IMG/VR virus record: IMGVR_UViG_3300045988_082442
Coordinates: 128,001-192,000 of that record
DNA from: a virus
Length of the DNA stretch: 64,000 nt
Strand: one strand, 5' to 3'
The notes below the pieces were generated by a model, which was not told the origin of the DNA, ran no database searches, and was given only the letters and a program-made list of their open reading frames with translations. Made by a program: the position numbers and the translations under genes. Positions 1 to 19,086 of this stretch are shown here, in pieces. Positions within the stretch are counted from its first letter, which is position 1; each line of letters starts with the position of its first letter.

Positions 1-73
1 TAAAAATGTTCAGTAAGATGTTAATAAGAATGTAAGTAAGTTTTCTGGTATCTTGATAAAAACCAGAATATAT

Positions 74-146
74 CTCCTTATGGTGTAATAGGCAAACACG
101 CTACTGAGTGGTGGTAGAATTATAGGTTCGAGCCCTGTTGGGGAGG
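74..146 (+). tRNA. tRNA-like gene with non-canonical anticodon loop (GUG/His if read at standard positions)
   Basis: Hand fold: acceptor CTCCTTA/TGGGGAG (two G-U), D arm GTGT-AATAGGCAA-ACAC, T arm ATAGG-TTCGAGC-CCTGT, anticodon stem CTACT/GGTAG. The loop GAGTGGT lacks U33. Confidence 0.5.
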
Positions 147-272
147 ATAAATTCTATATATAGAATAATGTGTTACGCAGTATCTGTATTATAAGGTGAC
201 AAGTACACAGGACGCTGTGGAGGGTTTCAATTCCTGGTAGTTGATTAGGTCTACAAAATACAGATATAATAT

Positions 273-344
273 CAGGTGGTAGTTGATAGGAAAACACTTC
301 TACTAATGTATGAAGAGATGCTGGTTCGAATCCAGCCCTCCTGA
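273..344 (+). tRNA. tRNA-like gene, degenerate (possible pseudo-tRNA)
   Basis: Canonical T arm GCTGG-TTCGAAT-CCAGC. Acceptor CAGGTGG/CCTCCTG has one T-T mismatch. D loop contains GG. Anticodon arm pairs only 3-4 bp (CTTC..GAAG) around an 11-nt loop. Confidence 0.35.
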
Positions 345-357
345 CCTTTTCAAAAAT

Positions 358-443
358 GCAAGTATATCTCAACGGCAGAGCAGCCTCCAGTTGGGGGTGA
401 AAAGTAGCATACGATTGTGTAGGTTCGAATCCTACTACTTGCA
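358..443 (+). tRNA. class II (long variable arm) tRNA-like gene, anticodon arm non-canonical
   Basis: Perfect acceptor GCAAGTA/TACTTGC, T arm GTAGG-TTCGAAT-CCTAC, D loop AACGGCA, variable-arm hairpin GTA-GCA-TAC. The anticodon region GCCTCCAGTTGGGGGT folds as 6 bp with a 4-nt loop rather than 5 bp with a 7-nt loop. No encoded CCA. Confidence 0.5.
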
Positions 444-446
444 ACC

Positions 447-489
447 TAAAAATGACACAGATGTAAAAGAATATATTCATAGGTTATAT
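447..489 (+). ncRNA. candidate tRNA-flanked guide RNA: orphan 3' half of the CRISPR repeat (447-469) plus a 20-nt unique sequence (470-489)
   Basis: TAAAAATGACACAGATGTAAAAG matches the last ~21 nt of the array repeats. It starts 4 nt after the tRNA-like gene ending at 443. The 20 nt AATATATTCATAGGTTATAT that follow abut the 5' end of tRNA-Trp at 490. Confidence 0.45.
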
Positions 490-564
490 AGGAGCTTGGT
501 GTCAATGGTAGCACGACAGTCTCCAAAACTGTGAGTGAGAGTTCAAATCTTTCAGCTCCTGCCA
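490..564 (+). tRNA. tRNA-Trp (anticodon CCA), CCA end encoded
   Basis: Acceptor AGGAGCT/AGCTCCT, D arm GTGT-CAATGGTA-GCAC, anticodon stem ACAGT/ACTGT with loop CTCCAAA, T arm GAGAG-TTCAAAT-CTTTC, discriminator G then CCA. Confidence 0.9.
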
Positions 565-778
565 ACATATCAATAATTCTAAATAAAATAAAAATAATCA
601 GATTGGGTTTGGTACACCTGTAAGTTTGGGTATAGATATGGTCCTAAAAGGTCAGTCTTGATTATGCACAGAGATGTGCTGGCGAACGGTGAATTATTGA
701 TATAAACAGATTGGATTATAACCTCTATAAGTTCAAGATAGAATGGGCTTGAAATACAATCTGTCAGTAATTTAATAT
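565..778 (+). ncRNA. candidate tracrRNA-like RNA between two tRNAs (anti-repeat at about 608-641)
   Basis: No ORF. 613-622 TACACCTGTA is the exact reverse complement of repeat bases TACAGGTGTA. Ungapped extension pairs about 23 of 30 positions with array-1 repeat 1. A repeat-like ATGCACAGAGATGTGC hairpin lies at 663-680. Confidence 0.35.
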
Positions 779-864
779 GGGTAGTTGGGTGAGTGGCTAA
801 AACCATCAGACTGTAAATCTGACCTCATTTGAGTTCCCTAGTTCGAATCTAGGACTACCCACCA
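779..864 (+). tRNA. tRNA-Tyr (anticodon GTA), class II, CCA end encoded
   Basis: Acceptor GGGTAGT/ACTACCC, anticodon stem TCAGA/TCTGA with loop CTGTAAA, variable-arm hairpin CTC-ATTT-GAG, T arm CCTAG-TTCGAAT-CTAGG, A then CCA. Confidence 0.9.
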
Positions 865-870
865 GTAAAA

Positions 871-910
871 GGGCAATTTTACAGCCCTTGCAGGAAACTG
901 TGAACTGTGT
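871..910 (+). promoter_or_regulatory. conserved double-hairpin leader motif, copy A
   Basis: GGGCAATTTTACAGCCC TT GCAGGAAACTGT GAACTGTGT. It lies 9 nt upstream of the first repeat of array 1. Related copies are at 3019, 13279 and 17196. Confidence 0.7.
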
Positions 911-919
911 ATTCTGATA

Positions 920-1144
920 TTTTTATAGCTATATGAAATAATACAGGTGTAAAAGTGTTCTAACTGTTTTAGAGTATAATCGTTTGTTTTACAGATATAT
1001 GAAATAACACAGGTGTAAAAGCTAGACTGTAAATCTGGTCTCATTTGAGTTACTTTGTAGTTATATGAAATAGCACAGATGTAAAATTGGATAATATGTT
1101 CTGAATTGTTTTATAGCTATACAGAAATGACATGGATGTAAGAG
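920..1144 (+). CRISPR. CRISPR array 1: four 36-37-nt repeats, three spacers (30, 30, 20 nt)
   Basis: Repeats at 920-955, 986-1021, 1052-1087 and 1108-1144, with a 66-nt period for the first three. Consensus is GTTTTATAGCTATATGAAATAACACAGGTGTAAAAG. Spacers are unique. The array is 57 nt upstream of the RuvC nuclease gene on the same strand. Confidence 0.8.
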
Positions 1145-1201
1145 TTACGGCTAGGTATAGACATCAATAGTGATAAATAATTTATTTGGGGGTTAAAAAA
1201 A

Positions 1202-3007
1202 ATGAAAAGAAAAGAGTTAAACGAAGGAGTTCACTGTGTAGAATATGCTTTAATGCACATACCAGATGAATATAAGGAATTGTTAGAAAGACAATATAAT
1301 TATATGGAAGATTTCAAGAATGGCTTTATTAGTTATATGTGGAGATATATTTCAAAGCAACGAAAGGAAAACGAAGAATTTGATAAAGCCATGGCTGAAG
1401 TTAGATACTTAAATACAAAGGAAGGAAGAATTATAAAGAAGGATGAACGCTCTAATAGACTAAGTAAAGCATATACAACAATAGGTAATTTTGTAAAAGA
1501 AACAAAGTTATTAGATTCTGGAAGTAGACGAAAAGAATACTACAGTACAGTAAAAAATGTTTATTATGCTTGGATACCAGATGATAGTAGGTCTTATGCA
1601 ATAGATGATGTTTTATCAGCATTTGAAGTATTCTTCTTTGATAGGGGTAAAGCAGTATTCCAAAAGAAATATGGTCATACAAAAATATTACAATTTAAAC
1701 CAGCATACAGTAGAATGAAGAGTACTGGTGAAATCAATACAATAGTACAAACACCTAGCAGAGTTGTATTTGAAAATGGAAATCCTTATTTTGAAATGTG
1801 GGATTTAAGAGATTTAAAAGATATACCAGAAGAAGAATGTCAAAAAGGTAAAAGACATAGTAAGATAAGATTTAGAATGTATTGTAATGATAAAGATGAG
1901 TTACAAAGTTATATAAAAACAAACCCATACATAGGTGGAACTAAGTTATTAAGATACTGGAAGAAGGGAAAATGGAGATATAGAGTTCAATTAAACTTTG
2001 AAGCAATATCACCAGCAGTAAAACAAATGAGCAACGAAGAGCATATAATGGGAATAGACTTAGGTACAGAAACAATAGCTTGGGTAAGAGATGATGGAGA
2101 ACAAGCAATATGGGAGTTATCACCAGATACACCAAGGGTAACAGAAGAAATAAAGGAAATAGATGTATATTTAGATAATTCAAGAAGGGCTATGAATCCA
2201 GAATTATTTAGGGAAGATGGTACTAGAATAAGTAATAGGGAAGCTAGGGAATTAGGATTAGAAGAAAAGCATTCAAAAAGATATATAAAAGCAGCAGCAA
2301 GAAGAAAAGAATGTTTTAGATATTTAGGAGAAAAAAGAAAACTAAATAACAGAATCCTAGCTAAAAAGTTATTTGAATTAGGTAATGAGTTTCATATAGA
2401 AAATAATAAGGTTTCATCTTGGATGTTAAAAAGATGTCACATGGCTCTTAAAACAGCAATGAAATATGCTTCTGGAGCAAGAGCAAGTGATTATGGGAAA
2501 GTTGTAGCAGATAGAGCCCCAGGAATGATAGATGCAAGATTATCTCAATTAGCAGGACAAAAAGGACTTTCATACCATAAAATTGAGAAGATAGAAGGTT
2601 TTAAATGCACAGAATATAATCATTTTACGGATAAGAATGATTTATTCCAATATCTAAATGACAGAATTGTAGTATTAGATGTTGACAGTGTAAATGATGT
2701 CTATAAAGAGTTTATTACTGATTTTGGTGATACAATTACTGATTTAAAAATAGACGGAAAAGACATAATACTACAAAGAGATTTATATGCAGCAGCAAAA
2801 TTAGTTTATTGCACACCATATAAAGAAACTATTGTGAATAGTAAAGGTAGAAAGGTAGAAGTAACAAGATATAAATTTGATAGAGAAGGGTTTAGCAAAT
2901 TCTTTGTTGAGAAATTTTATCCAAAACATTTAGAGTATATAATGAATCTAAGGGCTGAGTTAGCTAATGGTAAGAAGCTAAGTGGTACTGTATTTGGTAA
3001 TATTTAA
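1202..3007 (+). CDS. TnpB-like RuvC nuclease; candidate miniature type V (Cas12-like) CRISPR effector, 601 aa
   Basis: RuvC-I HIMGIDLGTE (about nt 2050), RuvC-II FHIENNKV (about nt 2399) and RuvC-III ILQRDLYAAAKL (about nt 2780) occur in TnpB/Cas12 order. About 280 aa precede RuvC-I. The zinc-ribbon cysteines are absent. RBS GGGGG. A CRISPR array is adjacent. Confidence 0.75.
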   Translation: MKRKELNEGVHCVEYALMHIPDEYKELLERQYNYMEDFKNGFISYMWRYISKQRKENEEFDKAMAEVRYLNTKEGRIIKKDERSNRLSKAYTTIGNFVKETKLLDSGSRRKEYYSTVKNVYYAWIPDDSRSYAIDDVLSAFEVFFFDRGKAVFQKKYGHTKILQFKPAYSRMKSTGEINTIVQTPSRVVFENGNPYFEMWDLRDLKDIPEEECQKGKRHSKIRFRMYCNDKDELQSYIKTNPYIGGTKLLRYWKKGKWRYRVQLNFEAISPAVKQMSNEEHIMGIDLGTETIAWVRDDGEQAIWELSPDTPRVTEEIKEIDVYLDNSRRAMNPELFREDGTRISNREARELGLEEKHSKRYIKAAARRKECFRYLGEKRKLNNRILAKKLFELGNEFHIENNKVSSWMLKRCHMALKTAMKYASGARASDYGKVVADRAPGMIDARLSQLAGQKGLSYHKIEKIEGFKCTEYNHFTDKNDLFQYLNDRIVVLDVDSVNDVYKEFITDFGDTITDLKIDGKDIILQRDLYAAAKLVYCTPYKETIVNSKGRKVEVTRYKFDREGFSKFFVEKFYPKHLEYIMNLRAELANGKKLSGTVFGNI

Positions 3008-3018
3008 TATAAATTATA

Positions 3019-3053
3019 GGGTAATTTTACAGCCCTTGCAGGAAACTGCAAAT
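3019..3053 (+). promoter_or_regulatory. conserved double-hairpin leader motif, copy B
   Basis: GGGTAATTTTACAGCCC TT GCAGGAAACTGC AAAT, 12 nt after the effector stop codon. Confidence 0.7.
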
Positions 3054-3062
3054 AAAATATCA

Positions 3063-3089
3063 TTTTAAAGCTCTATGATATTGTAAAAG
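3063..3089 (+). repeat. degenerate, internally deleted CRISPR repeat
   Basis: TTTTAAAGCTCTATGATATTGTAAAAG keeps the repeat's 5' TTTTAnAGCT and 3' TGTAAAAG ends. It lies 10 nt after leader copy B and is followed by hairpin AAACTGAT-TTAAA-ATCAGTTT (3090-3110). Confidence 0.45.
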
Positions 3090-3157
3090 AAACTGATTTA
3101 AAAATCAGTTTGTATATTCTTTTTATATTTTTTGAATATTTTTTCATTTTAATTTCT

Positions 3158-3191
3158 TTCTATAGCTATTTAAAATACTATAGATATAGAG
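3158..3191 (+). repeat. degenerate CRISPR repeat copy
   Basis: TTCTATAGCTATTTAAAATACTATAGATATAGAG matches 25 of 34 positions of array-2 repeat 6 without gaps. About 37 nt of unique sequence follow, then the terminator. Confidence 0.5.
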
Positions 3192-3228
3192 TTAAAGACA
3201 TCCTATATACAAAGAAATATTCTAATTT

Positions 3229-3254
3229 AAAGGCAGAGAAATCTGCCTTTTTAA
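3229..3254 (+). terminator. intrinsic terminator closing the tRNA-CRISPR-effector unit
   Basis: AAGGCAGA-GAAA-TCTGCCTT followed by TTTTT. Confidence 0.8.
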
Positions 3255-3269
3255 TTTATTAAAAAATGC

Positions 3270-3298
3270 TTGACAAAATTTAAAACTTATACTATACT
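3270..3298 (+). promoter_or_regulatory. sigma-70-like promoter (family consensus)
   Basis: TTGACA, 17 nt, TATACT, within AAAAATGCTTGACAAAATTTAAAACTTATAC. Confidence 0.7.
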
Positions 3299-3338
3299 TA
3301 TTATAATAAGATGTTAATATATAGGAGGGGTGATTATA

Positions 3339-3797
3339 ATGACAAATGATTTAATAATTAGAAAAATAAATAATATTGATATATACGATTTAGAAGATGA
3401 GCAGATATTTGAATTAAAAGATACAATAGTTAAAAATGTAAATTTAAAACAGTTAAGAGAATCAGTAAATAAAGCAGTCTTAAATTTATCAGGGGTTGGG
3501 GACCCTACTTGGAATGCAGACTTAAACTTCATAGCATTAGATAACCAGAAAAGATTAAATATAGTCTATATGCTTATAAGCAATTTGGAGATGTTTGAAA
3601 TTAGTGTTTCTAATATCAAGAAGAATAAATATGGTTGTGCAATGGATTCAGAACAGTCATTGAGATTTTTAGGAATAACAAAAGATTTAGTAGATACAGT
3701 CATCAAGTTTGGAGAGTTTAAAATAGATGAAGCATACCAGAATAAGCTAGAACTAGAAGAAAACAAGAGATTAGAATTAGAAGGAGGGAATAACTAA
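3339..3797 (+). CDS. hypothetical protein
   Basis: ORF-track frame. ATG at 3339 lies 8 nt after GGAGGGG and is preferred over the GTG at 3330. Confidence 0.7.
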   Translation: MTNDLIIRKINNIDIYDLEDEQIFELKDTIVKNVNLKQLRESVNKAVLNLSGVGDPTWNADLNFIALDNQKRLNIVYMLISNLEMFEISVSNIKKNKYGCAMDSEQSLRFLGITKDLVDTVIKFGEFKIDEAYQNKLELEENKRLELEGGNN

Positions 3798-3808
3798 TAG
3801 AACCAGAT

Positions 3809-3925
3809 ATGAAGAAGTTAGATTATGCTTACAAAGAAAATCAAAGAAAGAAGAATGTTAAAGAATATCAAGATAAGTTCTTTAAGAAAATAACAAAGAA
3901 TAAATACCAAGGAAAGAGGGTGTAA
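3809..3925 (+). CDS. small basic hypothetical protein (38 aa)
   Basis: An ATG..TAA ORF fills the gap between neighbouring genes. It is below the ORF-track length cutoff. Confidence 0.3.
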   Translation: MKKLDYAYKENQRKKNVKEYQDKFFKKITKNKYQGKRV

Positions 3926-3927
3926 AT

Positions 3928-4146
3928 ATGCAGACATTGAATAAAATATTAAAATTAAAAGAAGATACTTATAATAAACTATTACAATCAGGAATTACAG
4001 TTGATTTAGCAAAGCAAGCATCTGAACTAACATATCAAATAAATGTATTAAGTGCAACACCAGAAGATTTAAAGAATGATGCTAATCTAAAAGCAGAATT
4101 TGAAAGATTTTGTAGGGAGGCACAAAATGATGAAAATAGGGGATAG
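3928..4146 (+). CDS. hypothetical protein
   Basis: ORF track; RBS AGAGGG upstream. Confidence 0.6.
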   Translation: MQTLNKILKLKEDTYNKLLQSGITVDLAKQASELTYQINVLSATPEDLKNDANLKAEFERFCREAQNDENRG

Positions 4147-4312
4147 AATAATATCAGTAAGAACAGGTGAAACTGGTACTGTTGTTACAGGACCAGAAGA
4201 GATACTAGGTATAATAAATTACGGTATTGAGTTTGATAACCCAGAAGCAAGAAAGTTATTCAATCCATTTTATGTACCAGAAGAATTATTAGTAAGTTTA
4301 AAAGAATATTAG
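4127..4312 (+). CDS. hypothetical protein
   Basis: ORF-track frame. ATG at 4127 follows GGGAGG and overlaps the end of the previous gene. Confidence 0.55.
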   Translation: MMKIGDRIISVRTGETGTVVTGPEEILGIINYGIEFDNPEARKLFNPFYVPEELLVSLKEY

Positions 4313-4325
4313 GGGGGGTATTGTT

Positions 4326-4703
4326 ATGATAATAGAAACAACATTTAATGATAATGATTTCACACATATATTAGATGAATATTGGAGTAGGTTTAGATTT
4401 GTAAATTATTACTATGGACTAGATAGAATAGAAGACCCAGCAGTATATAGAGATGCAAGAATAGATATGGAAAGCTTAATTGAAAAAGCAGTGTATAATG
4501 ATTTAGACCAAGAAGAATCAAAAAGGTTTTTATTATATATTAAAACCAGCATATTGGAATTTATAAAGGATAACTATCGAGATGATTATATATATTTAAG
4601 TGATAATTTTAAAGTTGCAATTAAGAAGTCAGTAGAAGATAAAAATTATAATGGAGAAATAGTATATTATTTCTTAACTAATAATGTATATATAACTATG
4701 TAG
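4326..4703 (+). CDS. hypothetical protein
   Basis: ORF track; GGGGGG RBS upstream. Confidence 0.65.
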   Translation: MIIETTFNDNDFTHILDEYWSRFRFVNYYYGLDRIEDPAVYRDARIDMESLIEKAVYNDLDQEESKRFLLYIKTSILEFIKDNYRDDYIYLSDNFKVAIKKSVEDKNYNGEIVYYFLTNNVYITM

Positions 4704-4743
4704 ATGTTATACTTATTAGATAAATAATATTGGAGGTAGAAAA

Positions 4744-5916
4744 GTGAATTTATTAGATAGTGTAGAAATTCAGAAATTAGAAGAGGATATAAAAAGATAT
4801 GCAAAAGCGTACTACGAGGGAAAAGCTCAAATCTCTGACTATGAGTTCGACAAACTTACAGATAGATTAAGAGATTTAAAACCAGACTCAACTGTATTAA
4901 GAACACCGGGATGGGGATATGAACAAACTGGTACAAAAGTAAAACATAAATATCAAATAGTTAAAAGTTTGGATAAGTGCAGAACATTTGATGAAATTCC
5001 AGAAAGATTTACAAATAAATCAGTAGCATTATCACCAAAACTAGATGGTCTTACAGGTGTATTCTATTATAAAAATGGTAGACTTATAAAAGCAATAACA
5101 AGAGGAAATGGAACAGAAGGCAAGGATATTACAGATAAAGCAAGACTAATAGTAGGTAATGAAATATTAGATAAGAACTTTACAGGTGGTGTTAGAGGTG
5201 AACTTGAAATTTCTAATACTAACTGGGAAATAATAAAGAGCAAATACCCAGAAGCTAAGAATGCAAGGAACTTATGTGCAGGTTGGATAAATTCAAAAGA
5301 CTATAATCCAGATGAAATAAAAATGATAGATTTTATTACTTATAAGGTAACTGGACAAGAAAGAGAAGAAGGAAAAGAAGATATATTTTATGATTTATCA
5401 AAAGTAGATAATATTGGTGAGATATGCTTTAATAGCAATCCAACTAAGTTTAATGTTATAGACTGGCTATCATATAACTTTAAAAATACAATACCAAAGG
5501 TACAAGCAACATTAACAAGAGATGGGTTTCAAGAATTTATGCAAAAGGTATTTACTGAATTTAAAACAAGTGATAGATATAATTTAGATTACGAACTAGA
5601 TGGTATTGTTATATCTGATATAGATGTAATATATCATAGAGCAGAAAATTCATATATTTATGATGAGTGTGCCTTTAAATTTGCAGCTGAATCTGCTGAG
5701 GCTAAGGTTACAGGAATTACTTGGAATATGACAAGAACACAAAGATTAGTTCCCATTGTTCAGTTTGAACCTGTATTTTTATCTGGTGCTGTTTTACAAA
5801 ATGCTACTGGACACAATGCAAAGTTTATATTAGATAATGAAATAAAAATTGGTTCTACTATTGAGATTTGCAGAAGTAATGAAGTAATTCCTTATATAAA
5901 GAAGGTAGTTGATTAA
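4744..5916 (+). CDS. ligA: NAD-dependent DNA ligase, N-terminal fragment (Ia, adenylation and OB domains)
   Basis: LigA Ia-like YYEGKAQISDYEFDKL, adenylation motif I SPKLDGLTG, and ELDGIVISD. The fragment ends where an OB domain would end. GTG start after GGAGG. Confidence 0.8.
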   Translation: MNLLDSVEIQKLEEDIKRYAKAYYEGKAQISDYEFDKLTDRLRDLKPDSTVLRTPGWGYEQTGTKVKHKYQIVKSLDKCRTFDEIPERFTNKSVALSPKLDGLTGVFYYKNGRLIKAITRGNGTEGKDITDKARLIVGNEILDKNFTGGVRGELEISNTNWEIIKSKYPEAKNARNLCAGWINSKDYNPDEIKMIDFITYKVTGQEREEGKEDIFYDLSKVDNIGEICFNSNPTKFNVIDWLSYNFKNTIPKVQATLTRDGFQEFMQKVFTEFKTSDRYNLDYELDGIVISDIDVIYHRAENSYIYDECAFKFAAESAEAKVTGITWNMTRTQRLVPIVQFEPVFLSGAVLQNATGHNAKFILDNEIKIGSTIEICRSNEVIPYIKKVVD

Positions 5917-5917
5917 T

Positions 5918-6679
5918 ATGTATGGTTATATCTATTTAGTGCATGACAGTCTAAATAATAGACATTATATAGGACAACACAAATGGACAAAGTATGAATT
6001 ATTAGACGAAGATTACACAAGAGGGTCTGAAAAAGCATTTAGAGATTCCCATGGATTTGATTTATTTAAGATAGACCCAAATTATTTAGGTTCAGGAAAA
6101 CATTTACAAAATGCAATTAAAAAATATGGTAAGAATTATTTTTATATACAAGATATACTTGATATTGCAGAAACAAAACAGGAGTTGAATAAAAAAGAGA
6201 AAGAATGTATTAGACATTATAAATATGTATTAGGTTATAATCTATACAATATTAGTGAGGGTGGTGATGGAGGATATACTGGTAAAGATATTAGTGGTAA
6301 GAATAACCCAATGTATGGAAAACATCATACAGAAGAAACTAAACAGAAATTAAGAGAAATTATGAAATCTAAGGATTTTGAATATTTTAAAACAGACCCT
6401 AGATTTAGACATTATGGCAAAGATAATGGAATGTATGGTAAAAATCATACTGAAGAATCAAAGGAGAGAAACAGGAAAAAACATTTAGGAAAGAAAGTAT
6501 CTGATGAAACAAGAAATAAAATGAGAAAATCACATAACCCAAATAATATGCCCCCAAATCTACAAGGATATAGAGGAATGAATAATGGAATAATATATAC
6601 AAAAATACCACCAGATAAAATAGATAAATACTTGAGTGATGGTTGGAAGTTTGGAAGAATTAAAAAGGAGGATAAATAA
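5918..6679 (+). CDS. GIY-YIG homing endonuclease with NUMOD3-like repeats
   Basis: YGYIYLV..HYIGQH (GIY..YIG), YNISEGG, and two GK(N/D)NxMYGKxHTEE repeats. It sits between the two ligase fragments with overlapping stop and start codons. Confidence 0.8.
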   Translation: MYGYIYLVHDSLNNRHYIGQHKWTKYELLDEDYTRGSEKAFRDSHGFDLFKIDPNYLGSGKHLQNAIKKYGKNYFYIQDILDIAETKQELNKKEKECIRHYKYVLGYNLYNISEGGDGGYTGKDISGKNNPMYGKHHTEETKQKLREIMKSKDFEYFKTDPRFRHYGKDNGMYGKNHTEESKERNRKKHLGKKVSDETRNKMRKSHNPNNMPPNLQGYRGMNNGIIYTKIPPDKIDKYLSDGWKFGRIKKEDK

Positions 6680-7566
6680 TGAATAGATGTGTAAATTTAG
6701 AAGAGAGTGAATATTTACCTACACAATGCCCAGCCTGTGGACATAATTTGGAGTGGGTTGGTGTTGATTTAAAATGTGTAAACACAGAATGTCCACATAT
6801 AGCAGAGAGTGATTTGGAACAGTGGTGTACTATTGTAGGAGAAACAGATGGGTTAGCATGGGTAACAATGAAGCAATATTTAGATAAATTCAATATACAT
6901 AATACAGATGATTTATATAAGAATATAAATACAATGATAGCTACATTACAAGGTGGTAATGCTTCTATAACAGATAAAAAGATTGTAGAGTTTCTAAATA
7001 AGTTATATAAAGATATGATACCAGTAGAAAAAGCATTGATGGGATTAAATATACCAAGATTAAGTGAACAGACAGCAAAATTATTAAATAAAGAGAAAGA
7101 GTTAGTACATGATTTAATGACAATAGGTTCTCAATATACTACTGTAAAGGATAGAGATATGATTTCTATTCCAGATACATTAAAGAATAAACTATTAGGA
7201 TTAGTTAAAGAAGCAACAACAGAATCTATATTAAGTAATTTAGGAAAGTTGAACACACTACATTATTTATATGAACAAGATACACCTAGAATTATATTCA
7301 ATGACAATACTGATGAAATTATAAAGGTTGCTGTTACTGGCTCATTAGAGAGTATGAAAAGAAGTGCTTTTGAGAAGTATATACAAAGTTATGGATATGA
7401 ATTATCTAGTAGTATTAAATCTTGTAAATATTTAATAACTAATAATCCGAACAGTGGTTCAAGCAAGAATAAAGATGCCCAAAAATATGGTGTTGAAATC
7501 ATAACTGAAAAAGAATTTTTAGATAAATTAGGTAAGGTAACTACTAAATCTAATACATTGTTTTAA
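6679..7566 (+). CDS. ligA: NAD-dependent DNA ligase, C-terminal fragment (Zn finger, HhH, BRCT)
   Basis: CPACGHNL..CVNTECPH zinc-finger motif. BRCT-like VAVTGSL...YLITNNPNSGSSKNKDAQKYGVEIITEKEF. The ATG overlaps the TAA of the endonuclease gene. Confidence 0.8.
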   Translation: MNRCVNLEESEYLPTQCPACGHNLEWVGVDLKCVNTECPHIAESDLEQWCTIVGETDGLAWVTMKQYLDKFNIHNTDDLYKNINTMIATLQGGNASITDKKIVEFLNKLYKDMIPVEKALMGLNIPRLSEQTAKLLNKEKELVHDLMTIGSQYTTVKDRDMISIPDTLKNKLLGLVKEATTESILSNLGKLNTLHYLYEQDTPRIIFNDNTDEIIKVAVTGSLESMKRSAFEKYIQSYGYELSSSIKSCKYLITNNPNSGSSKNKDAQKYGVEIITEKEFLDKLGKVTTKSNTLF

Positions 7567-7576
7567 GGTATAAAGA

Positions 7577-7625
7577 GGGTTTTTACAAATTTATAACAAT
7601 TTTATAACAAATTTTGTAAAAACCC
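7577..7625 (+). terminator. long hairpin after ligA whose 3' arm abuts the next -35 box
   Basis: GGGTTTTTACAAA..TTTGTAAAAACCC. The loop carries the direct repeat TTTATAACAA twice. Confidence 0.55.
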
Positions 7626-7654
7626 TTGACATTTTTTAAAACTTATAATAATAT
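7626..7654 (+). promoter_or_regulatory. sigma-70-like promoter (family)
   Basis: TTGACA, 17 nt, TAATAT. Confidence 0.6.
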
Positions 7655-7681
7655 AAGCAAAGAGGTAGGAGGTGTAACACA

Positions 7682-10432
7682 ATGGGAAATTTATTTAATT
7701 TATTGAACAATCCACCTAAAAGTGAGTTACCAAAGTATTTGAAAGGAATTACAAAATCAGTTGATATTGAAAACTGTAGAACAATGGTAAATACATTTGT
7801 AGAAGGAGTTAATTTTACAGGGGATAAGTTAATTCAATATTGTATATCAAATAACATACCTTATTTTACAAGAGGTGAATATGATGTATTTACACTAGAA
7901 GAAGTTGAATATATAATAAATGATTTGAATACATTAAAAGCTTTAGAACTCGTTTTTGATGATTTTAAAAAGAAATTTCCAAAAAGACATATAGATATGT
8001 CATTAGAACAGTTTAAGAAGAAACTGTTAAAACTAGATTTAATAAAAGATGGAGAGGAGTTGAACAAATATATGAGGTACACAAATGATACAGTAGAGTA
8101 TGTCAGAAGATTAGGTACAGAACATACAATAGAAGAATGTTTGGAAATAATAAAAGTAGACAAACCTGAATTATCAATGACAGCAGATAGACTAAATGAG
8201 ATGAAGGATAGATACTTAATCAAATTTGTTAAAGATGAGGGGATGTTTACAGAATCACAGATTGAAATGATAAAAGTATTAGCAAGAACAGAAACAGTCA
8301 AAAATACATATTTAAGAATGAGAGAGTTATATGGAATACCATGTGGATACTTAGAGTTTATTGAACAAATAAGTAGATTAAAGGCATTATCAATATATAA
8401 CATTGGTACTATAACTACACATTTAACACCATTTGAAGAAGCATATATAGAGGAATTATTAGTTTCAGAAGATAGTAATGCTGTACTATATTCTAAATTT
8501 AATAAAGCATTTCCTAATAAATATCAATATCTACAATTTGTGAAATATTTAAACGAAATTAAAACATCAAAATACAGTAATAATGAAAGCACAAACAATG
8601 ATAAATATAAAGATTTAGAAAAACTTTTAGAATCATTTAAAGGGGAAAAGACAATACAAGAATGTTTAGATGAAGCACAGAAAGATGAAAGATTTAAAGA
8701 TTGTAATTATAAATCTATTTACAACTTTATACACAGAAGAAATATACCATTTAAACAAGCAAAAAAAGGAAGAGTAGCAGGTACAAAGAATATAGATAAA
8801 AAGGATAAGACAGTATCAAGAGCTAAGGGCAGAAAGAGCATACTAGATGATATTTATGATGATTTAGTTGAAACTTTAAGTAGGGTATCAATACCAAAAA
8901 CAATTATAGAATTAAAAGAAAGATATCCAGAGAAAGCAGATAGATTAAGTTATGGTTTAATAATGCACTATGCAAAAAATCATAATATTAAAACTAAAAA
9001 GGAGACACCAGAGGAAAGACAAGATAGAATGAATAAGATGAGAGGCATAAGGGGAACAAAGAAACAGGAACAGACACAATCAAAAGATGGTAAAGTAGAT
9101 GGTAGACAAGAATTGTCTAATAAGATTTATGATGACTTAAAATCATTGTGTAAAGATTATACAAAAATGGAATGCTTAAATATTATTCGTAAGAAATACA
9201 ATGTAGACTATACTGAGACTTATATACCAAATCTAATGAATAGAAAAGGAAAACTAAAATTTAAAGTATATACAGAGTTTACAGATGATATGAAAAAGAC
9301 AATAAGTGAATTAGAAGGAACAGTAGGAAATAAGGTAAATTTATATAGGAAATTTGCAAAAGTATATCCAGGTGCTGTGTCATTAAGACAATTTTGTAAT
9401 ATGTATAATGACATGGAAAAGGCATCAGAGGAAGATACAATACATAATACAGATACTATTGGGGTATCTGCAGATGAAATTGAAAGTAAACCTATTGTAG
9501 AACCAGTTACAGAACATATAGATACAATACCAGTTAAGGAAGAAGAGCATACTGAATTTGTTGAATCAATCCAACAAAAACAACCAGTACCTGTGGAAAA
9601 ATATCAACCAATAATAGATGAGGTAAATGCAACATTTGAAAGAAAATGTAGACAGTTAGGAGTATCAGAAGATACACATCAACATACAGATGAAATCATA
9701 AAAGCATTAGGTACTATTATACAATATGCAGATAGCAAGAAACTAAACAGAATATTAAATGACCATGAAGATATATTAGAGCAATATAGAAGAGAAGTGG
9801 AACATGAAATTGAAATAGAACCTTGGTCAGATGGTGATTCTTATTGTCATAATAAATTAAAAGCAATAGGAATGAGAAGAAGAGAAGTTAAATATGCTAG
9901 AGATGACATTAATGTAATGAAAGAATTACTTGACAATATAAATACTAATATTGAACTTTATAAAAAGACATTAGAAGATTTAGAGGAGAAAAAGTTACAA
10001 AGAGAGAACTCAATATTTATTCCATTGGTGGATTCATCAATGGTAGACAGACTAGATTGGTGTAAACATGCATCTTTAAGAAGCAAAAGAGCTTATACCC
10101 CAATACTAACAACTAATGCAAAGGAAGATAGAATAAAAAGATATAAAGCACAAGGAGACAGAGATTTATGGGTAGAAAAAGAACAGACACAACCTGTATT
10201 TCAAGATAATGTAAGTAAGTCAAATAAAAATTCCCATTTAAAATCAACATATAGAGTTAAGGCAGAATTTATGGTTTTAAAAGGAAACCCTTTTGTAAAT
10301 AAATATTATGATGTTGTAACAACTAATGAAGATTTAGCAAAGGACAAAGCAATAGAGTATTTTGACTTAATAAGCTCAAATAATAATAATGCAAAATATC
10401 AAATAGTATCTGTAACAAGATTAAATAGATAA
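7682..10432 (+). CDS. large hypothetical protein (916 aa) with repeated short helical modules
   Basis: ORF track; GGAGG RBS. Segments of the form ECL(E/D/N)..K...Y.....N recur at least four times. No catalytic motif recognised. Confidence 0.7.
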   Translation: MGNLFNLLNNPPKSELPKYLKGITKSVDIENCRTMVNTFVEGVNFTGDKLIQYCISNNIPYFTRGEYDVFTLEEVEYIINDLNTLKALELVFDDFKKKFPKRHIDMSLEQFKKKLLKLDLIKDGEELNKYMRYTNDTVEYVRRLGTEHTIEECLEIIKVDKPELSMTADRLNEMKDRYLIKFVKDEGMFTESQIEMIKVLARTETVKNTYLRMRELYGIPCGYLEFIEQISRLKALSIYNIGTITTHLTPFEEAYIEELLVSEDSNAVLYSKFNKAFPNKYQYLQFVKYLNEIKTSKYSNNESTNNDKYKDLEKLLESFKGEKTIQECLDEAQKDERFKDCNYKSIYNFIHRRNIPFKQAKKGRVAGTKNIDKKDKTVSRAKGRKSILDDIYDDLVETLSRVSIPKTIIELKERYPEKADRLSYGLIMHYAKNHNIKTKKETPEERQDRMNKMRGIRGTKKQEQTQSKDGKVDGRQELSNKIYDDLKSLCKDYTKMECLNIIRKKYNVDYTETYIPNLMNRKGKLKFKVYTEFTDDMKKTISELEGTVGNKVNLYRKFAKVYPGAVSLRQFCNMYNDMEKASEEDTIHNTDTIGVSADEIESKPIVEPVTEHIDTIPVKEEEHTEFVESIQQKQPVPVEKYQPIIDEVNATFERKCRQLGVSEDTHQHTDEIIKALGTIIQYADSKKLNRILNDHEDILEQYRREVEHEIEIEPWSDGDSYCHNKLKAIGMRRREVKYARDDINVMKELLDNINTNIELYKKTLEDLEEKKLQRENSIFIPLVDSSMVDRLDWCKHASLRSKRAYTPILTTNAKEDRIKRYKAQGDRDLWVEKEQTQPVFQDNVSKSNKNSHLKSTYRVKAEFMVLKGNPFVNKYYDVVTTNEDLAKDKAIEYFDLISSNNNNAKYQIVSVTRLNR

Positions 10433-10438
10433 TGTGAA

Positions 10439-10476
10439 TACATCTAACAGTACATATTTGTTAGATGTATATTTTA
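10439..10476 (+). terminator. intrinsic terminator
   Basis: TACATCTAAC..GTTAGATGTA followed by ATTTTAT. Confidence 0.6.
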
Positions 10477-10494
10477 TATATAGGAGGATTTAAT

Positions 10495-11289
10495 ATGGGA
10501 ATAGATTATAAAACAATAAGTCATGAATTACCAGACAATTTATTATGGCTGGAAGATAGAACAATATTACTAACAAAGGCAGGTTCATACATATATGGGA
10601 CAAACATAGAAACATCAGATACAGACTATAAAGGTGTTTGTATCCCACCAAAAGAATATTATTTAGGTTTAAAATCAATAAATGAATATAATAAATCTGG
10701 TGGTAAAAACTTTGGTGAAAGAAATACCAAAGATGATATAGATATAGTTGTATGTCATATAAATAAGTTTGTAAGAGATGCTATGAATGGTATTCCAAAT
10801 AATTTAGATATACTATTTTGTAGAGATGAGGATGTAATTTATATGGATGATTTTGGTAAGGAGTTAAGAGATTTTAGACATGAGTTCTTATCAAAAGAAG
10901 TATTCAAAAAGTTCTCAGGTTACGCTTTATCACAAAAACATAAAATAGAGACTAAAAAGAATCATGGAACTGGAAGAAGAGAATTAGTAGAAGAATTTGG
11001 GTATGACTGTAAATTTGCTTATCATGCTGTAAGACTAATATTAGGTGCAACAGAAATATTAGAAACACATGATTATCATTCATATAGACCAGAAAGGGAA
11101 TGGTTAGTAGAAATAAGAAAAGGTAAATATACACTAGAAGAAATATTTGATATAATAGAAGATTTAGATGCAAAACTAAAAAGTGCTTATGAAACAAGTA
11201 CATTAAGAGAAAAACCAGATTATCATAAAATAAATAAATGGCTAATAGGTTTAAATGAAAGAGCATTGAATTATGACTTTAAAAGGTAG
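10495..11289 (+). CDS. RlaP-like (RNA-repair-associated, pol-beta-fold) nucleotidyltransferase
   Basis: AGSYIYGTNIETSDTDYKGVCIPP resembles the GS..YG....SD.D..G signature of this family. ATG at 10495 after AGGAGG. Confidence 0.55.
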   Translation: MGIDYKTISHELPDNLLWLEDRTILLTKAGSYIYGTNIETSDTDYKGVCIPPKEYYLGLKSINEYNKSGGKNFGERNTKDDIDIVVCHINKFVRDAMNGIPNNLDILFCRDEDVIYMDDFGKELRDFRHEFLSKEVFKKFSGYALSQKHKIETKKNHGTGRRELVEEFGYDCKFAYHAVRLILGATEILETHDYHSYRPEREWLVEIRKGKYTLEEIFDIIEDLDAKLKSAYETSTLREKPDYHKINKWLIGLNERALNYDFKR

Positions 11290-11297
11290 TCAGCTGC

Positions 11298-11324
11298 CGT
11301 CAGGATTCCCTAGAAATGATTTTA
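11298..11324 (+). repeat. GC-rich conserved intergenic element, copy 1
   Basis: CGTCAGGATTCCCTAGAAATGATTTT is identical to 56975-57000 except for one base. Confidence 0.6.
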
Positions 11325-11388
11325 AATGTTTAGACATAAAATTATAAGGTTGTAAATAAAATAGTCTTAAATATTGTTCAAAAAATGC

Positions 11389-11417
11389 TTGACAAAACTT
11401 AAAACTTATAGTATATT
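11389..11417 (+). promoter_or_regulatory. sigma-70-like promoter (family)
   Basis: AAAATGCTTGACAAAACTTAAAACTTATAG then TATATT. Confidence 0.65.
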
Positions 11418-11445
11418 TATAGAAACGAAGGGAGATGGGTTTTAA

Positions 11446-12213
11446 ATGGGAAATTCAAGAATAAAAACATTAAGTGATAGAATGAAAGATTATGAGTTAG
11501 CATCTGATTACAGACTAACAAAGAAAACACCTGTAATAGTGAGAATAGATGGTAAATCATTTCACACCTTTACAAAAGGATTAGATAAACCTTTTGATAG
11601 TATATTATCAGAAGCAATGAACTATGTTTGTAGAAAATTAGTAGAAACAGTACAGGGCTGTAAGTTTGCATATACACAATCAGATGAGATAAGTTTATTA
11701 TTAACAGATTGGGATAAATCAACAACAGATTGTTATTTTGATTATAGGGTACAGAAAATGGTATCAGTATTAGCTTCAGCAGCAACTATGTATTTTAATC
11801 AGTATATAGTATCAAGAGTTTTATACTGGCAAAAAGGAGAGTCAGAATTATCAGAAAAGTTATTTGATAAATGGGCTGCAAAAGCTGGTTGTGCAATGTT
11901 TGATGCAAGAGCATATAATTTGCCAAAAGAAGAAGTATGTAATTACTTTATATGGAGACAAGAAGATGCAAGCAGAAATTCTATACAGTCATTAGGCAGA
12001 AGTAGATTTTCATTTAAGCAAATGTTAAATAAAAAGAACAATGAAGTACAAGATATGCTGTTTAATGAATATGGTATAAATTGGAATCGTATAGATACTA
12101 AATGGAAAAGAGGATTTGCAGTATGTAGAGATAAAGATGGTATAAAATCAGACTTTGAGATACCATTATTTAAAAAAGATAGAGCATTTATAGACAAATA
12201 TCTTATAGTATAA
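11446..12213 (+). CDS. Thg1-like protein (tRNA 3'-5' nucleotidyltransferase / tRNA-His guanylyltransferase family)
   Basis: VIVRIDGKSFHTFTKG and YTQSDEISLLL match the two conserved Thg1 catalytic segments. The size (255 aa) fits. Confidence 0.7.
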   Translation: MGNSRIKTLSDRMKDYELASDYRLTKKTPVIVRIDGKSFHTFTKGLDKPFDSILSEAMNYVCRKLVETVQGCKFAYTQSDEISLLLTDWDKSTTDCYFDYRVQKMVSVLASAATMYFNQYIVSRVLYWQKGESELSEKLFDKWAAKAGCAMFDARAYNLPKEEVCNYFIWRQEDASRNSIQSLGRSRFSFKQMLNKKNNEVQDMLFNEYGINWNRIDTKWKRGFAVCRDKDGIKSDFEIPLFKKDRAFIDKYLIV

Positions 12214-12242
12214 GATGTTTATAATGATGAAAGGATATAAAA

Positions 12243-12392
12243 ATGTTTATATGTGATAAATGTAGAACTTGTAGTAAGTTTCCATTTTGCACAGTAACAG
12301 AGAGTAAAGATGGAAATTGTGGTGAATATTCCAAAAGAAATATTTACAAGTTTATAGAAGATAAATTAAAAGATATTGAGAATAAGAGGTAG
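12243..12392 (+). CDS. small Cys-rich protein (49 aa)
   Basis: ATG..TAG ORF with CDKCRTC..C..C; fills a gap; below the track cutoff. Confidence 0.35.
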   Translation: MFICDKCRTCSKFPFCTVTESKDGNCGEYSKRNIYKFIEDKLKDIENKR

Positions 12393-12395
12393 AAC

Positions 12396-13013
12396 ATGCT
12401 TGAATTAGAGTTATATGGACGTTGTTATAAAAAGAATAACAATATAAAAATAAATAAAGGTATTACAGTTTTAACTGGACCAAATGGGTGTGGTAAATCT
12501 TATGCTTGTCAGCAAATAAGAGATTACCTAAAAGAAAATAATAAGAAAGTATATTTTGTAGATGTATATTCAGAGGGTAAAACTATATCACAACAATATT
12601 TAGAATATGGAGATATGGAATCATTAGCAAAGCATACAGTAGCATCAGAAGGTCAAAGAGTATTTGATACACTTATAGATAATCATGCATCAAAATTAGG
12701 GGAATTTGTTAGACAACTAATAGATAATAACCTAAAAGAAGGATATATAATTATAGATGGTGCTGATAGTGGTGTTAGTATTGATTTAATGATGTCATTG
12801 AGAAGTTTATTTAGTATGATAGAAGAGGATTGTGTAGACAGTGGAATAGATATATACATAATTATAACTTCAAATAGTTTTGAATTATGTAGAAATTACG
12901 ACTGTATCTGGATACCTACAATGGAACATTATAAAAGAGGAGATGAAGCAGATGCCTATGATTTGTGGAGACACCAATATGAAAAAATCTACAAAGAAAG
13001 AAACAAGAAATAA
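12396..13013 (+). CDS. P-loop ATPase (ABC/AAA-like, small)
   Basis: Walker A GPNGCGKS and Walker-B-like YIIIDGADSG. Confidence 0.65.
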   Translation: MLELELYGRCYKKNNNIKINKGITVLTGPNGCGKSYACQQIRDYLKENNKKVYFVDVYSEGKTISQQYLEYGDMESLAKHTVASEGQRVFDTLIDNHASKLGEFVRQLIDNNLKEGYIIIDGADSGVSIDLMMSLRSLFSMIEEDCVDSGIDIYIIITSNSFELCRNYDCIWIPTMEHYKRGDEADAYDLWRHQYEKIYKERNKK

Positions 13014-13269
13014 GATTGTAGAAGAATATAAAAGAATATACAGTAGAAAGTATAGAAGAGCTCATTATAAGAGTAAATGGGTATTACAATCTGGTAATCA
13101 ACTAGCAGAAGAAGATTTTAAATCTTGGTGTCAAGAATCAAAAGTTATAATGAGAAAGCATAAAGTTGGATTAATTACTGATGATGATATGTTGGGGTAT
13201 ATAAATAAATGGATAGAACAAGATGTTAAGATAAAAGAAGAAATAGATATACTTGCTTTGAGCAAGTAA
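12978..13269 (+). CDS. basic hypothetical protein
   Basis: ORF-track frame 12880-13269. ATG at 12978 after GGAGA is preferred. It overlaps the end of the ATPase gene. Confidence 0.5.
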
Positions 13270-13278
13270 TAGATATAA

Positions 13279-13315
13279 GGGTAATTTTATAACCCTTGCA
13301 GGAAACTGCGAACTA
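13279..13315 (+). promoter_or_regulatory. conserved double-hairpin leader motif, copy C
   Basis: GGGTAATTTTATAACCC TT GCAGGAAACTGC GAACT, 10 nt after a stop codon. Confidence 0.7.
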
Positions 13316-13334
13316 TTTTTAATAGATATAAAAG
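13316..13334 (+). repeat. strongly truncated CRISPR-repeat remnant
   Basis: TTTTTAATAGATATAAAAG keeps the repeat's 5' end and its terminal AAAG. It is followed by the palindrome AAAAGCTTTT and a T-run. Confidence 0.3.
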
Positions 13335-13390
13335 CTTTTTTCGATACCCCAATTTATAAGATAAATAAAACAGAATAGAGGTAGGAAGTT

Positions 13391-15859: not shown

Positions 15860-15860
15860 T

Positions 15861-16076
15861 ATGGGGTTAATAGGATACTATATATCTAACCTATTGTGTA
15901 ATATACTTATACTAGCAATGGTTGTAGTGGTGTTGATTATTTCAATACCACTTGCAGTTATAATATCATTATGTGAGGTTGTAGGTACATTAGGTATATT
16001 CCTAAATAAGTTATTAGATAGCCTTATTCAGAAAACAGATAATTTAATAAAAGTATTAAAAACAAAGGAGAATTAG
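15861..16076 (+). CDS. small membrane protein
   Basis: Two hydrophobic stretches. ATG at 15861 lies within the track ORF. Confidence 0.5.
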   Translation: MGLIGYYISNLLCNILILAMVVVVLIISIPLAVIISLCEVVGTLGIFLNKLLDSLIQKTDNLIKVLKTKEN

Positions 16077-16078
16077 AA

Positions 16079-16258
16079 ATGGAAGATTGGTTAAATAGAA
16101 TTGTAAAATGTCCATGGTGTAAGCAAGATGTTAGAGATGGTGATAGAATTTGGTTAGATGGGGAATGCCTATGTCCAGAATGCTATCAGCATAAAAGACA
16201 GAAATATGATGACTTAAAAAGAAGTGGTTATGAACAAGCAAAGAAAGAATCAAGGTAA
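16079..16258 (+). CDS. zinc-ribbon protein (59 aa)
   Basis: CPWC...CPEC. ATG 2 nt downstream of the upstream stop codon. Just below the track cutoff. Confidence 0.45.
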   Translation: MEDWLNRIVKCPWCKQDVRDGDRIWLDGECLCPECYQHKRQKYDDLKRSGYEQAKKESR

Positions 16259-16275
16259 TACAGAGGAGTGATATT

Positions 16276-17186: not shown

Positions 17187-17195
17187 TAAATATAA

Positions 17196-17235
17196 GGATA
17201 ATTTTACAATCCTTACAGGAAACTGTGAACTGTGT
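17196..17235 (+). promoter_or_regulatory. conserved double-hairpin leader motif, copy D
   Basis: GGATAATTTTACAATCC TT ACAGGAAACTGT GAACTGTGT, 8 nt upstream of array 2. Both stems carry compensatory changes relative to copies A-C. Confidence 0.75.
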
Positions 17236-17243
17236 AATTTAAT

Positions 17244-17665: not shown

Positions 17666-17676
17666 GAGAAAATTAA

Positions 17677-18111: not shown

Positions 18112-18133
18112 TAAATATTGAGGGGGTTAAATA

Positions 18134-19057: not shown

Positions 19058-19086
19058 AATAATATACTAAAATGGAGGTAATTTAT

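Follow-up and report, generated by a model that had tools for sequence, protein, structure and literature searches.

A 64 kb stretch of phage DNA (positions 128,001 to 192,000 of the IMG/VR record IMGVR_UViG_3300045988_082442, here termed the window, and recognisable as phage from a portal protein encoded at 40855-42771) harbours four copies of a double-hairpin element, found beside CRISPR repeats and the gene for a RuvC-only effector, and the question raised by this locus is what the element does there. An earlier note on the same DNA had considered an RNA-level leader or processing signal, a guide scaffold analogous to an omega-RNA, or relics of the subterminal hairpins of IS200/IS605 transposons. 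The double hairpin is here proposed to be, with good probability, the 5' scaffold of the adjacent effector's guide RNA, equivalent to a tracrRNA (trans-activating CRISPR RNA) and to one half of an omega-RNA. Sequence and covariation show three helices, a pseudoknot, a defined strand, an exclusive association with the effector's arrays and the fold class of the effector; that the scaffold is required for, and bound by, the effector during target cleavage is a prediction.

All element coordinates are on the + strand, on which the four copies start at 871, 3019, 13279 and 17196 (copies A to D), the positions originally reported. Hairpin 1 has a stem of 5 bp, rather than 4, once a flanking A-U pair is counted, and a 9 nucleotide (nt) loop reading AAUUUUA(C/U)A in RNA letters; it lies at 870-874/884-888 in copy A (loop 875-883), 3018-3022/3032-3036 in copy B, 13278-13282/13292-13296 in copy C and 17195-17199/17209-17213 in copy D. 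Hairpin 2, with a stem of 4-5 bp capped by GAAA in each window copy, is found at 889-893/898-902, 3037-3041/3046-3050, 13297-13301/13306-13310 and 17214-17218/17223-17227, respectively. A 30 nt consensus allowing up to three mismatches matches the window three times, against no matches in 100 shuffles, and a 14 nt core sequence recovers all four copies. A covariance model trained on a 17-sequence alignment of hairpins 1 and 2, run over the 64 kb with its filters off, retrieves exactly these four at 56.7-66.2 bits, the next best score being 12.7.

Within the window the covariation is modest, consisting of a C-G to U-A change, a G-C to A-U change and G.U pairs. The stems described by the earlier note as covarying are nevertheless borne out by relatives, the fetched contigs that encode effector homologues at 32-56% identity (given L numbers below). 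Across 17 copies, 98.1% of alignment cells are paired and both sides have changed in seven of the ten pairs, a value reached by none of 500 shuffles, and partners slid by 1-3 columns pair at 24-50%. The stem of hairpin 2 is swapped wholesale among relatives (GCAG/CTGC, ACAG/CTGT, GCGG/CCGC, ACGC/GCGT, GCGC/GCGC, ACGG/CCGT, ACAA/TTGT and GAGTA/TACTC), and its loops stay mostly GNRA-like. One pair of hairpin 1 is G.U in 19 of 26 copies, which would be A.C on the opposite strand, and the structure thus belongs to the RNA of the + strand.

The distribution of the element is equally specific. The covariance model yields 27 matches above 30 bits in the relatives, all on the effector strand and all beside arrays or the effector; at least 14 are copies on which the model was not trained, and further copies lie beside effectors only 35-37% identical. 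Every copy in ten loci adjoins the effector or the effector's arrays, with up to six found within about 10 kb (L005) compared to four in the window. A unit starts no more than about 12 nt from the effector stop codon in nine loci (the window, L001, L005, L007, L008, L010, L011, L029 and L034), and at the same position in L033 there is a diverged copy, read by eye and scoring only 13.5 bits. Elsewhere, a pattern scan of one genome per GTDB species (185,579 species) returned a single match and scans of IMG/VR returned 15, all of them chance matches lacking the hairpin 1 stem, and Rfam searches of window positions 1-20000 at E values up to 1 found only transfer RNAs (tRNAs), so the element is not a generic terminator. 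A terminator reading, suggested by the T-run after hairpin 2 of copy C, is rejected, as a U-run follows none of the other hairpins and this one hairpin is the sole candidate flagged as terminator-like.

The loop of hairpin 1 and the final bases of the repeat, which lie immediately 5' of the spacer, are complementary, and the covariation of these two segments argues for a pseudoknot. The loop/tail pairs in the window are UUUUAC/GUAAAA (A and B), UUUUAU/AUAAAA (C) and UUUUAC/GUGAAA (D, with one G.U), and others are UUUUAG/CUAAAA, UUUCAU/GUGAAA and CUUUAG/CUAAAG. Pairing in this helix amounts to 98.7% over 26 units, with both-side changes in three of six pairs, the variable pair being C-G nine times, G-C six times, U-A six times and U.G three times; none of 500 shuffles reaches the observed value, and slid controls pair at 44-64%. 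In the L027 lineage (32% identity), which has different hairpins, a loop of UCUUUAU or UCUUUAC matches a tail of AUAAAG or GUAAAG in all four arrays. At the variable position, complementarity between loop and tail is kept where that between the repeat's own 5' end and its tail is lost (L005 at 4627 and 7816, L007 at 3080 and L009 at 978), which argues for selection acting on the pseudoknot itself.

A third helix accounts for the linker after hairpin 2, which over 10-14 nt complements the 3' half of its own array's repeat and is itself functional sequence, an anti-repeat. Matched anti-repeat and repeat segments change in step, as in TATGTAAAAT/ATTTTACATA and TATGTAATTT/AAATTACATA, and differ between arrays of one genome, as in TGTGTTAAAT/ATTTAACACA, TATGTTATT/AATAACATA and ATGTAATT/AATTACAT. 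The resulting hairpin 3 is 83.7% paired, with both-side changes in five of ten pairs and none of 500 shuffles reaching the observed value, three sequences being one base out of register. In 11 of 15 units RNAfold predicts hairpins 1 and 2, a 3 nt spacer and then a long hairpin 3, with about 10 nt left free as a tail. Pairing extends to the second repeat of the same array, with which the linker pairs better than approximately 86-100% of local 18-mers do, and in 14 of 20 units less than 5% of local windows attain the energy of this interaction. In some leaders the anti-repeat is tandemly duplicated, ATGTAATTTT occurring three times in L005 (7856-7886) and twice in L029 (7867-7895).

Two of the window copies head arrays. 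The scaffold of unit A (870-913, with pseudoknot bases TTTTAC at 877-882 and the anti-repeat at 905-913) directly follows a tRNA-Tyr gene (779-864, + strand), the 3' end of which is 5 nt upstream of hairpin 1. Array A (920-1144, + strand) comprises repeats at 920-955, 986-1021 and 1052-1087 and a degenerate fourth at 1108-1144, with spacers at 956-985 and 1022-1051; the anti-repeat CTGTGT pairs with ATACAG in repeat 1 (941-946) and with ACACAG in repeat 2, and the repeat tail GTAAAA (949-954) is complementary to the hairpin 1 loop. The scaffold of unit D (17195-17240, pseudoknot bases 17202-17207) follows the stop codon of an open reading frame (ORF) at 17186, and array D (17244-17672, + strand) consists of six 36 nt repeats, the first at 17244-17279 and the last at 17575-17610, separated by 30 nt spacers and followed by a degenerate seventh from 17641. 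Its anti-repeat CTGTGTAATTT (17230-17240) pairs with AAATGACACAG in repeat 1 (17260-17270), and its tail GTGAAA (17273-17278) with the hairpin 1 loop through one G.U.

The other two units are solitary, being followed by shortened repeat remnants with no full array. Unit B (3018-3111, + strand) begins 11 nt downstream of the effector's stop codon (3007) and has a short hairpin 3 formed by AATATCAT (3056-3063) and ATGATATT (3075-3082), a tail GTAAAAG (3083-3089) pairing with loop bases 3025-3030, and a hairpin (3090-3111) occupying the position of the guide. Unit C (13278-13334, + strand) lies after the stop codon of an ORF (13269) and upstream of a Pnkp/RNA-ligase gene (13391-15859); its miniature hairpin 3 is formed by CTATT (13313-13317) and AATAG (13321-13325), and its tail ATAAAA (13328-13333) pairs with the loop TTTTAT (13285-13290), both sides having changed in a compensatory way compared with A, B and D. 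The placement of every copy just after a tRNA or a stop codon was thus correctly observed at the outset, as was the presence of a repeat or remnant downstream of each, but the distance of up to about 10 nt was not, the first repeat beginning roughly 17-20 nt after hairpin 2. Solo units in L029 (1371) and L008 (1891 and 2020), like B and C, keep all helices with hairpin 3 shortened. Of internal matches to the guide positions of the window's solo units, the best has 14 nt for B (at 2738, within the effector gene) and 11 nt for C, both estimated to be compatible with chance in AT-rich DNA, and the idea that these units are fixed-guide regulators was dropped, as no such match is a convincing target. 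Units A and B show no differences in the near-identical strains L031 and L032.

Proximity to tRNA genes recurs among the relatives. Units start 2-7 nt after tRNA or transfer-messenger RNA (tmRNA) genes in the window, L005, L029 and L027, and the L029 solo unit (1371-1460, with a 22 nt guide position) fits exactly between two tRNAs. Ribonucleases (RNases) Z and P could define the ends of such units, and 3' processing of tRNA-Tyr is the likely source of the 5' end of the unit A scaffold. From the tRNA cluster through array A and the effector gene to unit B there is no predicted internal terminator, the series ending at a terminator at 3229-3250, downstream of which is a consensus promoter at 3270. 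Upstream, at 447-489 on the + strand, an orphan CRISPR RNA (crRNA)-like unit consists of the 3' 23 nt of a repeat (CCTAAAAATGACACAGATGTAAAAG, 447-469, ending in AAAATGACACAGATGTAAAAG) and a further 20 nt (470-489), with neither a scaffold of its own nor the 5' end of the repeat. It lies exactly between a tRNA (357-446) and tRNA-Trp (490-564), and looks like a crRNA releasable by tRNA processing. The tRNA-like gene at 357-446, to which ARAGORN assigns an undetermined, two-base anticodon and Rfam a tRNA score of 38.7 bits, could be an unusual or intron-containing tRNA. A tmRNA gene is present in L007, L009, L027 and L029.

In three relatives the double hairpin is also found without a repeat, 35-45 nt upstream of the effector start codon (L001 9926-9990, L011 455-520 and L029 5936-6000). 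The hairpin 1 loops of these copies in the 5' untranslated region (UTR) differ, and pair with a purine box after hairpin 2 (UUCUC/GAGAA, UUCUUC/GAAGAA and CUCUCAUU/AAUGAGAG); only a remnant, AGGTA at approximately 1151, is present in the window. These copies may be scaffold mimics through which the effector regulates its own mRNA.

The effector itself (1202-3007, + strand, 601 aa) carries the RuvC motifs GIDLG, ENN and QRDLYAAAK, but belongs to no Pfam family and matches nothing in the PDB by sequence or profile. By tblastn it is 25-32% identical to IS200/IS605 TnpB over about half its length. An AF2 model (predicted local distance difference test score 84, predicted template modelling score 0.77) shows a TnpB/Cas12f-like fold class: its best Foldseek matches in the PDB are AsCas12f, Cas12m2, ISDra2 TnpB, Cas12p and LaTranC, at about 10% identity, the top one (8j12_A) having a template modelling score of 0.48 when normalised to the query and 0.64 when normalised to the target. 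Profile scores are weak, with PADLOC reporting Cas12f at an E value of 4e-7 over 194 residues and Cas12u3 at 6e-6, and the NCBIfam guided_TnpB model 17 bits against a cut-off of 100. The family is small, with eight matches in a search of 5.8 billion proteins and 23 cluster representatives at E values below 1e-30, beyond which the next tier is made up of TnpB-like proteins of about 500 aa; the effector's own 90% cluster is annotated only as 'hypothetical protein', on contigs of 150-216 kb. In alignment the family splits, through a coordinated change at two catalytic positions, between members in which the three RuvC residues (approximately 286, 400 and 527 in the window) read D-E-D (the window, P0002-4, P0007, P0012 and P0016) and members in which they read N-D-D (P0005, P0010, P0011, P0013-15 and P0018). 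The idea that N-D-D effectors are repressor-like and accompany solo units only is ruled out by L033 and L034, in which N-D-D effectors have arrays.

If these features are combined into one guide RNA, the unit would run 5' to 3' on the + strand from hairpin 1 through hairpin 2, usually GNRA-capped, and 1-3 unpaired nt to the anti-repeat, whose partner would be the 3' half of the next repeat (hairpin 3, or R:AR-2, for repeat:anti-repeat). The 9-10 nt tail of the repeat would come next, its last bases GUAAAA pseudoknotted with the hairpin 1 loop UUUUAC (R:AR-1), and the spacer would follow as the guide. Because the scaffold lies directly upstream of the first repeat, the leader, first repeat and first spacer would constitute a natural single-guide RNA. 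The effector would bind the scaffold fold, and the RNA ends would be set by tRNA or tmRNA processing through RNases Z and P, or by processing of the effector mRNA's 3' UTR. With internal repeats, the scaffold would pair in trans, or over a long range within the transcript, displacing the stem between their 5' end and 3' tail, and units B and C would be decayed or fixed-guide single guides. Of the roles first suggested, the omega-RNA-like guide scaffold is the one that the anti-repeat stem, the covarying pseudoknot, the copy at the effector stop codon in nine loci and the TnpB/Cas12f-like fold support, and that of a leader or processing signal holds only loosely, in that the element would lie in the transcribed leader.

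The scaffold may act in cis or in trans. The orphan unit at 447-489, if functional, needs a scaffold in trans, as it has none, and so suggests trans use; that each scaffold co-varies privately with its own array, and that genomes hold many short arrays, speaks for pairing in cis or within the same transcript. In the window lineage the element is contiguous with repeat 1, with no terminator between them, and in L027, where the anti-repeat is 70-90 nt upstream of the array, it is followed by a T-run 60-70 nt ahead of the array, in what looks like a split state of scaffold and array.

This arrangement has clear counterparts. Nakagawa et al. described a guide-pseudoknot-stem structure conserved in the TnpB omega-RNA and all Cas12 guide RNAs, and presented the omega-RNA as a natural single guide whose tracrRNA-like and crRNA-like parts are linked through a loop; they proposed that tracrRNA:crRNA pairs came about when it was split (PMC10097598). 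As in the ISDra2 TnpB omega-RNA, the unit proposed here is one continuous RNA with a 5' tracrRNA-like and a 3' crRNA-like part joined by a loop, shares the guide-pseudoknot-stem layout, in which bases immediately 5' of the guide take part in the pseudoknot, and has a copy at the 3' end of the gene for a RuvC-only, TnpB-sized nuclease. Unlike in the omega-RNA, the 3' part leads into a true CRISPR array with variable 30 nt spacers, each genome has several units at a distance from the gene, often in tRNA clusters, the scaffold is shorter and does not overlap coding sequence, and neither a transposase nor transposon ends accompany it among 46 window ORFs and the gene tables of the loci.

Among miniature type V systems, Cas12p is a phage-encoded effector of 500-700 aa with both a repeat:anti-repeat duplex and a pseudoknot (AAAC:UUUG) between repeat tail and tracrRNA, and such pseudoknots are also reported for other Cas12s (bioRxiv 10.1101/2025.01.20.633832). 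The window's system resembles Cas12f (V-F), the Cas12p 'hacker' and the TranC intermediates in that an anti-repeat pairs with the 3' part of the repeat, and Cas12 tracrRNAs in that the repeat tail (AAAAG here, AAAC in Cas12p) would be pseudoknotted with the 5' region; it also has the 36 nt repeats and few spacers of miniature type V systems, whose effectors Foldseek retrieves, and is phage-encoded, as are Cas12p and, going by what a paper citing the TranC work says of it, CauTranC9 (bioRxiv 10.64898/2026.03.27.714800). It differs from all three in that the effector has no sequence or profile match to any solved chain, and in that the tracr-like module, of about 45 nt plus anti-repeat, abuts the first repeat in the window lineage and heads every array with private co-variation in place of a single separate gene. 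The element is probably an array-fused, multi-copy, tRNA-operon-embedded version of the known TnpB/Cas12 guide scaffold, belonging to an unannotated effector family. Guides flanked by tRNA genes are also the basis of engineered polycistronic tRNA-gRNA arrays, and the tRNA-associated units (L029 1371-1460; window 447-489 and 866 onwards) resemble these in that release by RNases P and Z is possible, the difference being that the arrangement here is natural and its processing a proposal.

Several points weigh against the assignment to the effector's guide RNA. Transcription, RNA ends and effector binding are all inferred, and the counts for hairpin 3 and the pseudoknot were made on concatenated segments chosen by the authors, with the variable loop removed. 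The scaffold is short, with about 45 nt before the anti-repeat, compared to approximately 100-120 nt or longer in characterised Cas12f, TnpB and Cas12p scaffolds. Internal repeats self-fold in 14 of 18 cases through a stem between the 5' end (GUUUUAN) and the 3' tail, and the effector might use self-contained crRNAs, with the leader module needed just for the first unit or for another purpose; a single scaffold serving up to eight spacers of an array would be a poor stoichiometry for a classical trans-acting tracrRNA. The anti-repeats of units B and C mismatch the real arrays. A search of the spacers against all fetched loci and 50,697 phage records found no full-length protospacer, so no protospacer adjacent motif can be derived, and targeting activity and guide polarity are predictions.

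The alternative that survives best, although it is unlikely, is a regulatory hairpin in which the leader would pair with the first repeat only, blocking or prioritising its processing, and would stand outside the effector-bound guide. Such a function would have counterparts in the leader-repeat hairpins of Cas13 arrays and, as a further example of leader-repeat pairing, in the Cas9 leader RNA. In Cas13 arrays a conserved hairpin of this type suppresses an extraneous crRNA, making this an established type VI mechanism (PMC13187072), and standalone repeat-like regulatory RNAs are found beside cas genes and in phages (PMC10120712). The window's element shares the pairing of leader with first repeat and the solo repeat-like units, and the predicted minimum-energy fold in the 11 of 15 units noted above is the cis pairing of linker and first repeat, with internal repeats able to fold on their own. 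However, the additional covarying hairpins 1 and 2 and the pseudoknot with the repeat tail distinguish it from the Cas13 hairpins and are left unexplained by such a role, and the guide positions of the solo units, unlike those of the standalone regulatory RNAs, have no convincing partial target. Nor does leader-repeat regulation account for the retention of all helices in solo units that have no array, for the repeat-less copies in the effector 5' UTR, or for L027, with its anti-repeat far upstream of the array; and the TnpB/Cas12 polarity of repeat then guide implies that the first repeat heads a genuine crRNA, with none being extraneous (as inferred from PMC10097598).

It is improbable, too, that the element is a site for another factor, such as an RNase, an antitermination or stabilising protein or DNA-level adaptation machinery, that would mark the start of CRISPR transcription units without a role in the effector complex. 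The element always forms the 5' edge of units, with a tRNA, a tmRNA or a stop codon ahead of it, an ATATA box lies upstream of many copies, and the arrays show spacer turnover, though cas1 and cas2 are absent from the window. Yet pseudoknot and anti-repeat link the element to the repeat of its own array at the level of single bases, which a generic processing or stability signal would not need, the G.U pairs argue for RNA over duplex DNA, and there are only four copies in 64 kb, with none at other operons.

A promoter resembling a weak sigma-70 type, read by eye from TTGCAG and a TA-rich hexamer 16-18 nt on (TTGCAG-N16-18-TAnnnT), is rejected, as the would-be -35 box is not conserved (ATACAG and TAGCAG also occur, as do GC-only stems in L029) and the element in L029 has a canonical TTGACA-N17-TGATATAAT promoter ahead of it, implying that the element is transcribed. 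Together with that promoter and the terminator dismissed above, left-end and right-end (LE/RE) subterminal hairpin relics of IS200/IS605 form the least credible set of explanations, very improbable and already largely refuted, since the TnpB-like effector and the flanking of array and gene by copies A and B, which had suggested such relics, are set against copies beyond the bracketing pair, many per genome and each matched to its own array's repeat, units heading arrays with variable spacers, and the lack of any Y1 transposase (TnpA), the partner that the earlier note had proposed looking for, among 46 scanned window ORFs or in the gene tables of neighbouring loci.

Beyond the assignment of the double hairpin as a guide scaffold, a broader and more tentative proposal, possible when all of its parts are taken jointly, is that this jumbo-phage lineage preserves an 'unsplit' stage of type V evolution. 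The omega-RNA-like scaffold would never have become a separate tracrRNA gene, remaining covalently joined to the repeat, and the array would have grown by duplication of the crRNA-like 3' part only, giving each mini-array a privately co-evolving scaffold. Units would sit inside tRNA and tmRNA operons, from which host RNases P and Z would cut the guides, the repeat-less scaffold copy in the effector mRNA leader of some relatives would be a possible autoregulatory decoy, and the sister lineage L027 would show the split state. Distant descent of the scaffold from the omega-RNA at a transposon's right end is possible.

The current model of type V systems has the TnpB omega-RNA split into tracrRNA and crRNA, and a fused scaffold and array beside a sister lineage in which they are seemingly split would make the order of these events testable on living examples. 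The fold derived from covariation, comprising two short hairpins, an anti-repeat stem and a 6 bp pseudoknot in about 90 nt, provides an immediate single-guide design for an uncharacterised family of 600 aa nucleases with no match to solved structures by sequence or profile. The units flanked by tRNAs suggest a natural counterpart of the engineered tRNA-gRNA arrays, and the presence in jumbo phages (approximately 210 kb) of several mini-arrays, one with a spacer resembling tRNA-Tyr, points to targeting of phage by phage.

That spacer, the second of array A (1022-1051), agrees with the tRNA-Tyr gene of the phage itself in 26 of 28 positions across the anticodon and variable-arm region (807-834), the two mismatches being adjacent; it may target the tRNA-Tyr gene of a competing phage with the phage's own copy spared. 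In the same array, positions 1088-1107 between repeats 3 and 4 are occupied by a conserved 20 nt non-spacer element, TGGATAATATGTTCTGAATT, and a near-identical sequence comes after the final repeat of the corresponding, homologous array in L001 (approximately 9888-9908), where the effector is only 49-51% identical and the stretch forms the 5' arm of an 11 bp hairpin (AATAATATGTT/AACATATTATT). A spacer of array D (17413-17442) shares its start, TCTGGAACAAATCTTGAAAA, with spacers in L010 (1592-1614) and L033 (approximately 3543-3567), beside effectors only 37-53% identical; this sequence has no match in the phage database, and could be directed at a conserved target or represent a shared 'housekeeping' guide.

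A recurring box, AAAAATGCTTGACAA, probably the consensus of a phage early sigma-70-type promoter, is found in the window at 3262-3298, 21262-21305 (in tandem at 21262) and 38492-38521, and in relatives L001 (12190), L029 (4290) and L027 (7715). In L005, about 250 nt of non-coding sequence after the solo unit at 5846 (5900-6150) are relatively rich in GC and may be structured, and Rfam gives no match for them at its gathering threshold. The arrays of these phages are surrounded by a large RNA-repair and tRNA toolkit (in the window at 13391-15859, 17677-18111 and further scanned ORFs), comprising a Pnkp-phosphoesterase-RNA ligase fusion, Thg1, RlaP, YqeY, an NAD-dependent DNA ligase and dozens of tRNAs.

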